NCBI GenBank assembly: GCA_018655525.1
Contig: JABIJM010000030.1
Coordinates: 28,083-92,082 of the forward strand
Length of the DNA stretch: 64,000 bases
DNA from: Candidatus Woesearchaeota archaeon
GTDB taxonomy: Archaea; Nanobdellota; Nanobdellia; Woesearchaeales; GW2011-AR9
Reading direction: 5' to 3'
Shown here: positions 9,716 through 53,715 of the stretch, in pieces
Layout: each line of letters opens with the position of its first letter
How positions within the stretch are numbered: position 1 is the stretch's first letter
Translations under genes and position numbers: made by a program
Notes under the pieces: model-generated
Database searches by the model: none
What the model was told of the DNA's origin: nothing
Seen by the model: only the letters and a program-made list of their open reading frames with translations

Positions 9716-9832
9716 GCCTCTGTAGCATAGTGGCTAATGCGTCTGCCTCGTAAAATCTAGGTTTCCTTGATTTGTTCAGAAATCTTGATTTCAGACAGCA
9801 GAAGATCGGGAGTTCAAATCTCCCCAGGGGCT
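9716..9832 (+). tRNA. tRNA-Thr (anticodon CGU) with a 44-nt canonical intron (9753..9796) after position 37
   Basis: Hand-folded cloverleaf. Acceptor GCCTCTG/CAGGGGC (one G-U), U8 A9, D-arm GCAT-AGTGGCTA-ATGC, anticodon stem TCTGC/GCAGA interrupted by the intron, T-arm GGGAG-TTCAAAT-CTCCC, discriminator U. Oligo-T follows. Confidence 0.75.
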
Positions 9833-40007: not shown

Positions 40008-40358
40008 ATGATCACAATATACTACAACTCAAAATGTAGCAAATGTAGACAAACGCTTGCATTATTACAAGAAAAAACAGATGAAGAGATTAATATCATT
40101 GAATATCTAAAAACGCCACCTTCAATTGAAGAACTTCAACAAATCCTACAAAAATTAAATCTAAATCCTCAAGAGATCATCAGAAAAGGTGAAGAAGAAT
40201 TTCAAGAATTTAAGGGAAAAGAATTCTCAGATAAAGAATGGATCCAGATATTACACGATCACCCAAAATTAATTCAACGACCAATTGTAATTATAAATGA
40301 GAAAGCAGTTATTGCACGACCACCAGAAAATGTGTTAAAAATATTACAACTCCCGTAA
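40008..40358 (+). CDS. ArsC/Spx-family thioredoxin-fold protein
   Basis: MITIYYNSKCSKCRQTLALL (CxxC near the N-terminus), IQRPIVIINEKAVIARP. 116 aa. Confidence 0.7.
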   Translation: MITIYYNSKCSKCRQTLALLQEKTDEEINIIEYLKTPPSIEELQQILQKLNLNPQEIIRKGEEEFQEFKGKEFSDKEWIQILHDHPKLIQRPIVIINEKAVIARPPENVLKILQLP

Positions 40359-42974
40359 CTTCTTCAAGGTATCATCAACATGTGTTTTCTTTTCCTTAAT
40401 TGCTTTTGGAGATCCACCACCATGCCATGTAAATCGTGGACGCATTTGTACAGGGAAAATACGTTCATTTGCATCATCAAAGACAACTGCTGCTCCTTTC
40501 ACACGCGGGAGATGATCTATTTCATCTACCAATCCAGTACGCATGTAACTCTGTGTTAATTGTCCTAACGCCTCTGTATCCATTTGTGCTGTTAATCTAT
40601 GAGCAAGAACCGTATCTGATTGTGTCATAACATCTGTGTGAATTTTTGCAGGTTGTTGAGTTGCAAGAATTAAACTGATTCCTGGTTGACGTCCTTCACG
40701 TAAAATTGTAATTAATGCATCTGAAGCTGCTGTTTTTCCATCATGAGGAAGAAGTTCATGTGCTTCATCAATTGCGAGCCATACTAACGGTTCTGTCATT
40801 TTTTCTTCAGTATCTTTAGAAAAATAATGCATTGCAGCATCTACAGATTTGAATTCTTCTGTCTTTCGTGCAAGCATTCTTTGATTAAACAATGTCCGAC
40901 TAATTAAACCTACAACTAACGCTTTAATTTCCCAACCAGAAGCCATAGTTGCATAAGGAGAAACATCTAAAACAGTTACTTGACCGCCTGCAACAATATC
41001 CTTCAAGGGGGTTCCTTCTTTAGAAAAAATACCCCATCCTTTTGCTTTTTGAAATTGATTTTCAACAATATTTCTTACAACTTTTTCTGAATCTTTTTCT
41101 TGAGAGATAAGAGAAATGAGTTCTTCCATATCATAAGACTCATTTTTATCTTTTAAATTTTGAACCACTTTTGAAATAAGAACACCTTCAGCAGTATTCA
41201 ATGAAATGTCAAATGCCCGACTCCAGTCTAAAGGATCAACATCAATTGGACGTATTGAAAACGGAAAATCTGTAGGGATTCCTTGTTCTTTATATTTGTA
41301 AAAGAAACCTGAAGGGGTATAAATTTTGACATCTAATGCCTTTGGATCAAATCCCCATTGTTTCACGAGATCTGAGTCTTGAAGATTAGGATATTTCATT
41401 GTCCAATAAATACCCATCGTATCCAATAAAACAATAGAAAGGTTTTGTTTGATTTCAACGGGTAAATCCGCTAAACCTTCTGCAATAGAACCCATGGTGT
41501 ATGAATTATGAACAATGATACCATTAGCAACAAAATTGTGAGTTTCAGGAACAGTAATGTCATAAACAGTTTCATTTCCTTCAATTTCTTTGATAGCCAC
41601 TATTTCATCCCAAAAAATATCTGAATTCGCAAACTTAGAAAGTAAATCAGATTCATCTGCAACAGCAATTTGTAATAATTTTTGTCGTGAAGGAGAATAT
41701 TTTGTACTTTCACGTAAAGCTTTAGGATGAGCATAACCCATCTTCCTTCCAATTGCTGCCCAATTATCTGGTTTATACATATCCCAAATTTCTTTTGGAA
41801 CAGTATCAACATTAGGGTTTCTAATAATTTTCACTGATTCTTTTAAAGCAATTACAGAACGTTCTTCTTTTTTACCATAAAAACCTATCTCCTGAAGATA
41901 CGTGTTAACATTTTCTCCATAAATCTCCAATTCATTAGCCTCAAATCCCTTTTGATTAACTTTTTTACGGATTTTAGCTACAATTCCGAAACGTAATAAT
42001 AAATGTTGTACCTGAGAAATTAATTGATCAGAAATAGAACAATAACTTACAAACCAATGATTTGCTTTTTTGTAAATTGTCCCATCGCAAGAAAACAAAC
42101 GATTTAAAAATAAACTAATTTGATGTTTTGGCATTGTAAAAATACAATCAGGAACAAATTTTGTTAAAGACCTAGTCTCATAAAGTTTAAGTTCTTCAAG
42201 CCAATTACGTATTGATGAATGATCCCATTTTGGATTGTTAATAAATTGTCCATTCTCATCTCTTGAACTTTGCTCTTTCATTACTTTTTTGATTTGGGAA
42301 ACTCTAAAGCAAGAATCATCACTGTGCCGTTCAATTCTTAAATTATCATCAAAATCATAAACTGATTGTTTAAAATCTGAAACAATTTTTTGATCTTTAT
42401 TAGAAAATAAAACAAATCTATTTCCTAAATGGCCTTCAGCAATAAGATAAGCTAAAAGTTTAACTTCACATTCCTTTATTGATAAATCACCAAAAGATTC
42501 CAATTTACGTGGTGTTGCAACTCTTGAACCTATATTCAATTTTTCTATTGGAGACCAACCCTTAACAGTTAACAATGGATGCTCCGGAGTTAATTTAATG
42601 ATTTTACCGGTTCTAAACTTAACTTCAAATATTCGATCAACCTCCCTTTTATAAAAGTGAGATTTTTGACCTTCTTGAATCTTAAAATCAGAATTTAAAG
42701 TATAAATATTTTGATTCTTTTCTTCTAAATCTTTAATTTTTACAAGAGAACCATCATCAAGTGTAATTAAAGTATCACCATGAAGACATTTTCCACTCCC
42801 TCTTTTGCCGACGATAAAGACAACATGCGCTCCTGCGACATCCATGTACACAGGATTAGAAAGAGATGTGGTTTGACCCATCTTAACATATTGTTTTCCA
42901 ATAAGAACGGTTCCTTCCTTGCCAAACTTTTCCACGTCTTTTTTGCTTCTGCCGATAATAACATCAAACACCAT
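40344..42974 (-). CDS. HerA/DUF87-type P-loop ATPase (FtsK-HerA superfamily) interrupted by an intein in the Walker A motif
   Basis: Extein: VVFIVGKRGSGK|SYTMGS (Walker A), LAIDEAHELLP (Walker B), ILATQQPAKI (DUF87 ATQRP-like). Extein total about 448 aa. Confidence 0.6.
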   Translation of the reverse strand: MVFDVIIGRSKKDVEKFGKEGTVLIGKQYVKMGQTTSLSNPVYMDVAGAHVVFIVGKRGSGKCLHGDTLITLDDGSLVKIKDLEEKNQNIYTLNSDFKIQEGQKSHFYKREVDRIFEVKFRTGKIIKLTPEHPLLTVKGWSPIEKLNIGSRVATPRKLESFGDLSIKECEVKLLAYLIAEGHLGNRFVLFSNKDQKIVSDFKQSVYDFDDNLRIERHSDDSCFRVSQIKKVMKEQSSRDENGQFINNPKWDHSSIRNWLEELKLYETRSLTKFVPDCIFTMPKHQISLFLNRLFSCDGTIYKKANHWFVSYCSISDQLISQVQHLLLRFGIVAKIRKKVNQKGFEANELEIYGENVNTYLQEIGFYGKKEERSVIALKESVKIIRNPNVDTVPKEIWDMYKPDNWAAIGRKMGYAHPKALRESTKYSPSRQKLLQIAVADESDLLSKFANSDIFWDEIVAIKEIEGNETVYDITVPETHNFVANGIIVHNSYTMGSIAEGLADLPVEIKQNLSIVLLDTMGIYWTMKYPNLQDSDLVKQWGFDPKALDVKIYTPSGFFYKYKEQGIPTDFPFSIRPIDVDPLDWSRAFDISLNTAEGVLISKVVQNLKDKNESYDMEELISLISQEKDSEKVVRNIVENQFQKAKGWGIFSKEGTPLKDIVAGGQVTVLDVSPYATMASGWEIKALVVGLISRTLFNQRMLARKTEEFKSVDAAMHYFSKDTEEKMTEPLVWLAIDEAHELLPHDGKTAASDALITILREGRQPGISLILATQQPAKIHTDVMTQSDTVLAHRLTAQMDTEALGQLTQSYMRTGLVDEIDHLPRVKGAAVVFDDANERIFPVQMRPRFTWHGGGSPKAIKEKKTHVDDTLKKLREL
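41505..42788 (-). mobile_element. Intein (428 aa) with an embedded LAGLIDADG homing-endonuclease domain
   Basis: Starts CLHGDTLITLDDG and ends IIVHN|S. Internal LLAYLIAEGHLGN and LNRLFSCDGTIY motifs. Inserted after the Lys of GKRGSGK. Confidence 0.7.
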
Positions 42975-43012: not shown

Positions 43013-43555
43013 TTAGAATATATCTCTTAACCGAGATTCAATTGAGCCTTCAACATGTAAACTTCCTTTAGGGATATCTTTACTAGAAAACGCATAATTA
43101 GATTTAATTCTAGAAAGACCAAGATGTTTTTTTCCACTTGGAGCAGGATCCACTAAGTGGTGTGCATCCCAAGGAAGAACATAAATGTCCCTATACAATA
43201 TTGATCGTTCAGACACACTCCTCATTTCTGTAGGGGCATTCTTTGATTGACCCAACAACAAAAGCCAATACAATGTTAATTCAGAATTTTGGGAGTGACC
43301 TTCATAATTCTTAATTTGGTCAACATCTAATGGCCACCATTCAAAATCTGATCTTGGTCGTTTTCGCATGCCATTTTGAACTAAAGGATATGTACGAGAT
43401 TTTAATTCAAATATCGCTTCCTTACCAATTAAATCAGGTTGAATCATACTATCCTGATGTTGATGTATCGGATGCCTCTCTAAATCAAAATTCCTACACA
43501 AATAGCGAAGATGCAAGGTCTCAAGATGATTCTTTACAGAACTACTACTTAACAT
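43013..43555 (-). CDS. Hypothetical protein, possibly a PD-(D/E)XK nuclease (Hjc-like core)
   Basis: IQPDLIGKEAIFELKSRT resembles the D...ExK core of Hjc-type resolvases. Weak. Confidence 0.3.
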   Translation of the reverse strand: MLSSSSVKNHLETLHLRYLCRNFDLERHPIHQHQDSMIQPDLIGKEAIFELKSRTYPLVQNGMRKRPRSDFEWWPLDVDQIKNYEGHSQNSELTLYWLLLLGQSKNAPTEMRSVSERSILYRDIYVLPWDAHHLVDPAPSGKKHLGLSRIKSNYAFSSKDIPKGSLHVEGSIESRLRDIF

Positions 43556-52627: not shown

Positions 52628-52727
52628 GGGCCTGTAGCCTAGCCTGGATAGGGCGCCAGCCTTCTATATGAGAAAGCAATTCTCTGAAGGCAGCTGGATA
52701 CCGTGGGTTCGAATCCCTCCTGGCCCG
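52628..52727 (+). tRNA. tRNA-Arg (anticodon UCU) with a 25-nt intron (52667..52691) after position 37
   Basis: Acceptor GGGCCTG/CTGGCCC (one U-U), D-arm GCCT-AGCCTGGATA-GGGC, anticodon stem CCAGC/GCTGG around loop CUUCUA+A, T-arm GTGGG-TTCGAAT-CCCTC (one U-U), discriminator G. Confidence 0.55.
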
Positions 52728-52945: not shown

Positions 52946-53662
52946 ATGAAAATGGATAAAATAAATTTATATGAGTTTATTGGAATTATGATTGGTGATG
53001 GATGTTTATTAGATTATCCTAAACATAACATTTATGGTATAGAAATAACGGGAAACGCAACTGAAGAAGTAGATTTTTATAAAAAAATAGAAGAGTTCAT
53101 TAAATCAAATTTTGATGTGAATGTAAGAGTTCATGTTCGTAAAGATAAAACGGGACAATCCTTAAAATTAATTTGTTACAGCAAAATACTAGCAAATTTT
53201 CTAAAGAAACAAGGTATAAAAAGAAATAAAACCTATTCAACACAAATTCCAAGTCATTTATTAGAATGGAAATACAGTAAATATGTGATTAAAGGAATCT
53301 TTGAAACTGATGGCTGCATTTATTTCTCTAAATCTAAAAAGATAGCTTATCCAACCTATCCGCGTCTTGAAATTTGTACAGCTAGTTTACAGTTAGCTAC
53401 TCAAATCATTAAAATTTTAAACACAAATGGATTTACCGCAAGATCATATATTAACAAAAACACGATAACTATTTATATGAGCGGTGAAAATATGCTTAAT
53501 AAGTGGTCTACAGAGATAGGCTGGAGCGGTCTAAAAAATCAAACAAAATATGACCTTTGGAAATCTTTAGGATACTACATCCCAAAAATTTCACTTCCAG
53601 AAAGATTAAAATTATTAGGCGTCGGTGGCAAAGTGGCTAATATTGACCTCATAAGTCGATAG
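52946..53662 (+). CDS. LAGLIDADG homing endonuclease (double-motif)
   Basis: FIGIMIGDGCL and IKGIFETDGCIY motifs. Paralog of 21160..21864. Its last about 14 codons overlap the 5' exon of the downstream tRNA-Cys candidate. Confidence 0.7.
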   Translation: MKMDKINLYEFIGIMIGDGCLLDYPKHNIYGIEITGNATEEVDFYKKIEEFIKSNFDVNVRVHVRKDKTGQSLKLICYSKILANFLKKQGIKRNKTYSTQIPSHLLEWKYSKYVIKGIFETDGCIYFSKSKKIAYPTYPRLEICTASLQLATQIIKILNTNGFTARSYINKNTITIYMSGENMLNKWSTEIGWSGLKNQTKYDLWKSLGYYIPKISLPERLKLLGVGGKVANIDLISR

Positions 53663-53715
53663 CAAGCAGTCCCCTGCAGAGGGACGGATCGGGGGTTCGA
53701 GTCCCTCCCGGCGCT
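53619..53715 (+). tRNA. tRNA-Cys (anticodon GCA) candidate with a 21-nt non-canonical insertion (53648..53668) between D-arm and anticodon stem
   Basis: The 3' part is unambiguous: anticodon arm GTCCC-CUGCAGA-GGGAC, variable GGATC, T-arm GGGGG-TTCGAGT-CCCTC, acceptor 3' CCGGCGC, discriminator U. The candidate 5' part GCGTCGG-TG-GCAA-AGTGGCTAATA-TTGA has a perfect acceptor match and D-loop invariants, but a weak D-stem. Confidence 0.45.

Follow-up and report, generated by a model that had tools for sequence, protein, structure and literature searches.

The window considered here, a 64,000-nucleotide (nt) stretch of DNA from a Candidatus Woesearchaeota archaeon, contains on its minus strand an open reading frame (ORF; 40344..42974) whose 876-amino-acid (aa) product is an ATPase interrupted in its P-loop by a 428-aa element (41505..42788). 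We are highly confident that this element is a canonical class-1 bifunctional intein, that is, a Hint domain with an inserted two-motif LAGLIDADG endonuclease, lodged in the P-loop of an ATPase of the HerA superfamily (DUF87). The design of the intein and its P-loop position are textbook, and it is the host family that is new.

The precursor and its parts

The reading frame is intact over all 876 codons, and its translation, once the two junction strings were located in it, placed the intein at precursor residues 63-490. An earlier note on this DNA had called a 428-aa intein at 41505..42788, and its coordinates, length and junctions proved exact to the base. The junctions read GKRGSGK/CLHGD... 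and ...IIVHN/SYTMGS (here and below, a slash marks the junction). The Walker A motif of the host is split, just as that note had described it, in the form GKRGSGK/C...HN/SYT, with the insertion in frame between the Walker A Lys and Ser. Cys1 of the intein is precursor residue 63 (42786..42788), and its terminal Asn is residue 490 (41505..41507). On one side, the N-extein (42789..42974; precursor aa 1-62) starts with the N-terminus MVFDVIIGR, which it has in common with its orthologues, and ends with the first Walker A half, GKRGSGK (42789..42809). On the other side, the C-extein (40344..41504; precursor aa 491-876 plus the stop codon) opens with Ser+1 (Ser491; 41502..41504), a residue that doubles as the Walker A Ser and as the splicing nucleophile. 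All of these features, as well as the parts of the intein itself, lie on the minus strand.

Within the intein, the N-terminal Hint lobe (42474..42788; intein aa 1-105) holds Cys1 in block A and T67-P-E-H70 in block B (42579..42590). It is followed by the LAGLIDADG homing-endonuclease domain and its helical C-terminal region (41640..42473; intein aa 106-383), which carry LAGLIDADG motif 1, LLAYLIAEGHLGN (42420..42458; intein residues 111-123), motif 2, LNRLFSCDGTIY (42072..42107; intein residues 228-239), and a further conserved motif in the endonuclease/helical part, NPNVDTVPKEIW (41784..41819). The earlier note had stated that both LAGLIDADG blocks are kept, and both of the strings that it quoted were found at these residues. 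The C-terminal Hint lobe (41505..41639; intein aa 384-428) closes the element with blocks F and G, VYDITVPETHNFVANGIIVHN (41505..41567), ending in His427-Asn428. In composition, the intein has a GC content of 29.4% compared with 37.0% for the extein; long ORFs in the window average 33.5 +/- 1.8%, with a minimum of 31.0%.

Assemblies in four repositories (NCBI, ENA, Logan and JGI) encode the same 876-aa precursor, on a total of 10 independent contigs, so it is not an assembly artefact. In NCBI its product name is 'hypothetical protein [Candidatus Woesearchaeota archaeon]'. The gene is thus a real allele whose intein was never annotated as such. A phmmer scan of all ORFs in the window found no second intein.

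Profile, residue and structural evidence for a class-1 intein

Profile searches recognize both halves of the proposed bifunctional design, at levels far beyond chance. The Pfam Intein_splicing model matches with E values of 1e-26 to 1e-27 (93.7-97.3 bits; cutoff 35.8), and the two ends are recognized separately by TIGR01445 intein_Nterm (51-52 bits; cutoff 24.5) and TIGR01443 intein_Cterm (40-43 bits; cutoff 15.6), all three above their cutoffs; a check with intein profiles had been proposed in the earlier note. The homing-endonuclease domain that the note had also predicted is matched by Pfam LAGLIDADG_3 above its cutoff (E 7e-19 to 4e-18; 65.8-68.4 bits; cutoff 22.5). Over the whole intein, the NCBIfam model PRK07773, which describes a DnaB with intein, reaches 266 bits. 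Alignment to the Ssp (Synechocystis) DnaB mini-intein (PDB 1mi8; E 4.7e-23) covers intein residues 2-99, with block B among them, and 383-427, that is, both Hint lobes.

The residues that matter for splicing were assessed in a set of 32 full-length allelic inteins, all at the same site in related ATPases. Cys1, T67-x-x-H70, D410 (block F) and His427-Asn428 are invariant in 32/32, as is Ser+1. The C-terminal His-Asn and the downstream Ser nucleophile, on which the earlier note had let its reading stand or fall, are therefore present. The element has Cys1, a TxxH motif in block B and a terminal His-Asn followed by Ser+1, and block F carries Asp instead of Cys; this combination makes it a class-1 intein. 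In the same 32 alleles the acid-Gly pairs of the two endonuclease motifs, E118-G119 (LLAYLIAE118G) and D235-G236 (LFSCD235G), are also invariant. The mean top-residue frequency is 0.61 in the endonuclease region versus 0.65 and 0.72 in the splicing lobes; by this measure, the endonuclease region is conserved about as much as the lobes that flank it.

Structural modelling supports the same assignment. An AlphaFold2 (AF2) model of the precursor has a mean predicted local distance difference test (pLDDT) score of 79, with block means of about 84-96 in most of the LAGLIDADG core and lower values (54-86) in two places, the C-terminal helical region and a loop spanning precursor residues 231-250. 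Its best structural match in the PDB is TliVMA (7qss; E 1.5e-24; template modelling (TM) score 0.71), and PhoVMA, PI-PfuI and PI-SceI are matched as well. The Hint fold is thus supported both by the Intein_splicing profile and by comparison of the model with intein crystal structures at a TM score of about 0.7. A separate AF2 model of an intein-free orthologue (P0001), built from 24 close homologues, was poor (pLDDT 52) and was set aside; the precursor model, which came from a more diverse alignment, was used for both domains.

The host ATPase

Once the intein is removed, the 448-aa spliced extein reaches 47.7 bits with the Pfam model for DUF87, 'Helicase HerA, central domain' (cutoff 23.2), whereas the interrupted protein falls short of the cutoff. 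It contains the Walker A motif GKRGSGKS, the Walker B motif LVWLAIDEAH and C-terminal HerA-like motifs. The Walker B segment LVWLAIDEAHELL (40749..40787, minus strand) and a second C-extein motif, REGRQPGISLILATQQP (40650..40700, minus strand), are supported by HerA matches among both PDB sequences and structures. In the non-intein part of the AF2 model the best PDB matches are HerA hexameric translocases (the Thermococcus HerA-NurA complex 9x1m, Sulfolobus 4d2i, Deinococcus 7wrw and anti-phage HerAs). Only about 50 residues, forming a beta-hairpin, precede Walker A in the model, and the full HAS barrel is absent. The classification of the host as HerA/FtsK-like, given in the earlier note together with a DUF87/HerA profile as the means to check it, agrees with both the DUF87 match and the HerA fold.

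Two closer identities were tried and rejected. As a bona fide HerA the protein scores far too low against the equivalog models NF040819 and NF040937 (42.7 versus 970 and 29.2 versus 800 bits, respectively); it also lacks the full HAS barrel, and no NurA lies next to the gene. As a defence HerA it fares no better: of the models NF042943 and NF042944, the latter gives 51.4 bits versus 850, and the conserved core synteny of the gene also speaks against such a role. Among defence libraries the best match of the host ATPase is PADLOC mad8, of the MADS defence system, which aligns over its full profile to the intein-free P0001 with 81.5 bits (HerA models reach at most 73 bits).

In Woesearchaeota the conserved neighbourhood consists of Topo VI B, KH, RIO1 and DnaG, then the ATPase, an M48 peptidase and a Cas4/Dna2-like nuclease. 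In the window the neighbours are DnaG, a 180-aa orphan, ArsC and M48. Given the low HerA equivalog scores and the conserved core synteny, we file the host as a distinct and uncharacterised subfamily of the HerA/FtsK superfamily, neither HerA proper nor defence HerA. Its conservation between species (75-85% identity) suggests an essential role, which would make it a good host for an intein. We found no copy of the host ATPase in viral contigs.

Empty sites, occupied sites and other intein lineages

Searching with the spliced extein retrieved over 6000 relatives, of which the top 120 come from Woesearchaeota/Nanoarchaeota and are 73-85% identical. Most of these 120 have 445-450 aa and an unbroken GKRGSGKSYTMGS; many intein-free orthologues of this length share 75-85% identity with the extein. 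The intein-free orthologue P0001 (448 aa; 85% identity) aligns end-to-end with the extein, with a continuous GKRGSGKSYTMGS and no frameshifts. The comparison with empty sites that the earlier note had called for thus yields intein-less orthologues that are colinear across the insertion and a continuous extein alignment. As a side observation, the title 'uncultured Methanosarcinales archaeon', probably a mislabel, is attached to many GTDB representative metagenome-assembled genomes that carry the Woesearchaeota-type gene.

To describe occupancy, one genome per species was scanned (80 loci). An uninterrupted GKRGxGKS occurs in 63/80. The site used in the window (GK/S, here site b) holds seven complete inteins and one truncated by the end of its contig. 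Full-length relatives of the window intein sit there in four loci (L051, L052, L055 and L059), and in three others (L053, L057 and L061) the occupants are mini-inteins of about 165 aa that are unrelated to it. These mini-inteins, which start with CV... (also seen in P0071, P0108 and P0112), score only 30 bits with the DnaB-intein model and are evidently not derived from the window lineage; they represent a third lineage. Three codons upstream lies a second site (site a; GKRG/C...HN/SGKS), occupied in 3/80 loci (L026, L054 and L058). The protein sequence that flanks these sites, F[IV][VC]GKRG[SG]GK/SY[TS][ML]G..AEG, is near-invariant across the host family, and a P-loop of this kind is the type of constrained target that inteins exploit.

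The closest relative that we found, L026 (JABMOA010000102.1), has an extein 95.8% identical at the aa level and about 85% identical at the nt level across DnaG and both exteins. It is without the window's intein and holds a 370-aa endonuclease-bearing intein at site a. This second intein is 30% identical to that of the window, scores 74 bits with the DnaB-intein model (versus 266) and has an RFC intein as its best model. Altogether, three intein lineages use two sites 9 nt apart in a single Walker A motif. Because the sites are so close, each intein would destroy the target of the other, and this fits exclusive occupancy, with sister species carrying mutually exclusive inteins (doubly occupied alleles were not searched for). 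The host, which the earlier note had singled out as unusual for an intein, is indeed not a usual one in the curated literature; within DPANN, by contrast, it is a recurrent one, occupied in 11/80 species representatives by three lineages.

Two further observations concern individual alleles. A 651-aa protein found on 21 contigs (P0220) is a derivative of the window lineage that has no LAGLIDADG core and has kept the helical region and the NPNxDTIPKEIW motif (window 41784..41819). Since the helical region was kept despite the loss of the core, it may matter, with a role in folding or splicing or as a separate DNA-binding module. In one pair of alleles, L001 and L052, the C-extein begins with 30 nt (window 41475..41504) that are identical at 30/30 positions, although the inteins of this pair are only 53% and the exteins 79% identical; other pairs are without such an excess.

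Relatives of the intein in other hosts

Among the 120 best hits of the intein itself, 72 are in DUF87 ATPases at the same site, with 43-97% identity. They come from Woesearchaeota, Diapherotrites, Pacearchaeota, Parvarchaeota and Nanoarchaeia, and their exteins, judged by eye, range from close orthologues to far more diverged proteins. At least 26 of the same 120 hits are in bacterial DnaB helicases, where the intein interrupts the P-loop of that protein (ARPSMGK/C...CVHN/T); for the full-length ones the match extends over 98-100% of the intein, with its endonuclease, at 30-37% identity. Two viral contigs from IMG/VR carry relatives in comparable places: an intein 33% identical in GRGTGK/C...HN/T of a phage terminase-like ORF (L088 892..3711), and one 26% identical at GK/T of a phage DnaB-like helicase (L089 3308..5944). 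The phage relatives at GK/T make viruses possible vectors for a clade of P-loop-targeting inteins.

From these matches we draw a broader proposal, which we hold only tentatively and regard as somewhat more doubtful than probable. The window intein may belong to a clade of 'P-loop specialists' whose members, all at the same GK/S or GK/T position, have moved from one ATPase to another, non-orthologous one and have crossed between domains of life, viruses being plausible vectors. In Woesearchaeota it would also compete with two or more unrelated lineages whose homing sites, three codons apart, overlap, and sister species would as a result carry mutually exclusive inteins. If true, ectopic intein transposition and interference between inteins could be studied here in a natural system.

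Proposed splicing and homing mechanism

Translation would produce the 876-aa precursor, in which the split P-loop should preclude ATP binding before splicing. Helped by the block B Thr/His, Cys63 would attack the Lys62 carbonyl (an N-S acyl shift), and the resulting thioester would be passed to Ser491. Asn490 would then cyclise with the help of His489 and release the intein, after which an O-N shift would restore the native GKRGSGKSYT P-loop and with it a functional 448-aa ATPase. The ligated extein would contain the junction peptide GKRGSGKSYTMGSIAEGLADLPVEIK. As a site-specific endonuclease, the excised intein (428 aa) would cut intein-less P-loop DNA at about TTTATCGTCGGCAAAAGAGGGAGTGGAAAA/TCATACACCATGGGTTCTATTGCAGAAGGT, and when the cut allele is repaired with an occupied allele as template, the intein would be copied into it (homing).

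The steps of this scheme do not all carry the same weight. That protein splicing occurs is, from the sequence evidence, near certain, since the host gene, which is strongly constrained, is undamaged. As for the endonuclease, it is probably functional today or was until recently, and it is plausible that the intein is still mobile.

Mobility and alternative explanations

Indirect evidence for mobility comes from distribution. Occupancy is patchy, and the divergence of the inteins is incongruent with that of their hosts: compared with L052, the inteins are 53% and the exteins 79% identical, and compared with L059 the figures are 72% and 73%. Such incongruence, together with a nearest relative that is without the element, points to transfer between lineages. 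Some observations weigh against an active, mobile intein. The intein is present in all copies from this species, and identity to the best relative without it is no more than 85%; with no empty allele of the same species seen, the intein may be fixed and have nothing left to home into. Intein-bearing alleles show no general excess of junction-proximal over distal identity in extein DNA, and so give no signal of co-conversion. Conserved motifs are also no guarantee of activity, as intein-associated endonucleases can be inactive (PMC8966425). One could thus picture an intein that splices and is immobile, its endonuclease dead or targetless and the whole a fixed passenger inherited vertically. The occupation of 10/10 contigs of the species and the missing co-conversion signal would suit this picture, as would the endonuclease-less mini-inteins common at the same site (L053, L057, L061 and P0220), which indicate that decay does happen. 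We nonetheless consider it rather unlikely, because both catalytic acids and the motifs around them are invariant in the 32 alleles, because the endonuclease region is about as conserved as the splicing lobes, and because the two signs just described argue for transfer between lineages.

A different role for splicing itself is that the intein was co-opted as a post-translational switch, in which conditional splicing (e.g. redox or metal control through Cys1) gates an essential ATPase. Conditional splicing of this sort has been reported for mycobacterial DnaB inteins (PMC6195587, PMC7360933), and the window intein falls into the same sequence clade as the DnaB P-loop inteins, at the equivalent position. 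It has several further cysteines, and the P-loop of the host would be wholly disabled until splicing. On the other hand, most orthologues, including the 63/80 species representatives with an empty site, function intein-free, and the occupants of the site belong to three unrelated lineages. Mostly empty sites with unrelated occupants fit parasitism rather than a conserved regulatory role, and we judge the switch improbable. Still less credible is that the insertion inactivated the gene, leaving a pseudogene, a non-splicing fusion or an assembly chimera. Nothing specific speaks for this beyond the 'hypothetical protein' label in NCBI. Against it stand the intact 876-codon frame with every splicing residue present, an extein 96% identical to L026 and 85% identical to P0001 without frameshifts, and the recovery of the same sequence in 10 independent assemblies, so that this reading is effectively refuted. 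A spliced, bifunctional and plausibly still mobile intein is the account that we retain.

Neighbouring genes and other features of the window

Downstream of the ATPase lies a glutaredoxin-type arsenate reductase gene, arsC (40008..40358, plus strand; TIGR00014 122.7 bits, cutoff 106), which is not part of the element. The two genes converge and their 3' ends overlap by 15 nt (the ATPase ends at 40344), as had been noted before. The earlier label of this neighbour, ArsC/Spx, holds in its first half: the arsC equivalog cutoff is passed and the Spx cutoffs are failed, so we read the gene as arsenate reductase. Among 87 loci, ArsC is found at this position only in the identical contigs L001-L003; being lineage-specific, it makes the overlap incidental.

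On the other side, between DnaG and the ATPase and 38 nt upstream of the latter, is the 180-aa orphan ORF (43013..43555, minus strand). It too is confined, among the 87 loci, to L001-L003, and in L026 DnaG is followed directly by the ATPase. It has no match in Pfam, NCBIfam, PADLOC, PHROGs or PDB sequences. By eye it contains a PD...E-x-K-like motif, QPDLIGKEAIFELK, and could on that basis be a small nuclease. We rejected the idea that it is a conserved nuclease partner, analogous to NurA in HerA-NurA, given its absence from L026 and 80 other loci and its lack of any family or structure match.

Elsewhere in the window, Rfam reports three long tRNAs (97-117 nt) on the plus strand, at 9716..9832, 52628..52727 and 53619..53715. 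They are probably intron-containing archaeal tRNAs. ARAGORN reported only the third of them (53619..53715), with its anticodon unassigned.

Significance and comparison with known systems

Insertion between the P-loop Lys and a nucleophilic Thr has been called the 'classic' P-loop insertion (PMC5050341), and P-loop inteins are documented in DnaB, MCM and RFC (PMC4760082). HerA and FtsK are not mentioned as hosts in the main text of that survey by Novikova et al. (PMC4760082), and no relevant account of inteins in HerA/DUF87/COG0433 proteins, in Woesearchaeota or in DPANN came up in a literature search. With the present case a DPANN HerA-superfamily ATPase joins the list of intein hosts, and it does so with a clean example of the Lys/Ser-Thr type of P-loop insertion. 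The use of one 10-residue motif by three independent lineages bears on how neighbouring inteins exclude each other, a form of interference that has been shown experimentally in haloarchaeal MCM (PMC10643990). The finding that the nearest relatives occupy the same structural position in unrelated bacterial/phage ATPases bears on how inteins reach new genes. There is also a consequence for annotation. JGI entries and KEGG K02314 label several archaeal relatives 'replicative DNA helicase', a mis-annotation that stems from the similarity to DnaB-type inteins, and in this way the intein masks an uncharacterised ATPase of exceptional conservation, one that is probably essential.

The nearest non-allelic relatives of the window intein are the bacterial DnaB P-loop inteins (site 'b' of Novikova et al., PMC4760082). 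They share with it both LAGLIDADG motifs, a QHLLLRFG motif and the SDI[FY]WDEI and HNFVAN blocks, and they are inserted at the structural equivalent of its site, after the Walker A Lys and before the residue with the hydroxyl group. They differ in their host, which is a bacterial RecA-type superfamily 4 (SF4) helicase and not a DPANN HerA/FtsK-type ATPase, and in having Thr rather than Ser at +1; they are not allelic to the window intein. The mycobacteriophage terminase intein TerL1-a (PMC5050341) differs from it both in host family and in intein lineage.

Among solved structures, the best sequence match over both Hint lobes is provided by the Ssp DnaB mini-intein (1mi8) and related engineered mini-inteins; 1mi8 differs in being engineered and without an endonuclease. 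The native site of the Ssp DnaB intein is DnaB motif H4 and not the P-loop. The same architecture, in which a Hint domain hosts a two-motif LAGLIDADG endonuclease, is found in TliVMA/PhoVMA (7qss, 7qst), PI-PfuI (1dq3) and PI-SceI (1vde). With the TM score normalised to the target, the VMA and PI-PfuI entries give 0.59-0.72 and PI-SceI gives 0.46-0.51. These inteins are only 11-21% identical in sequence and have other hosts (V-ATPase subunit A for the VMA inteins; ribonucleotide reductase for PI-PfuI).

As for the extein, it shares with the HerA hexameric translocases (4d2i, 9x1m and 7wrw, and the anti-phage HerA 8wiv/8xau) the DUF87 core, Walker A/B, the C-terminal motifs and the fold. It departs from them in having only 448 aa, a beta-hairpin in place of the HAS barrel and, instead of an adjacent NurA, DnaG and the M48 peptidase as its conserved neighbours.

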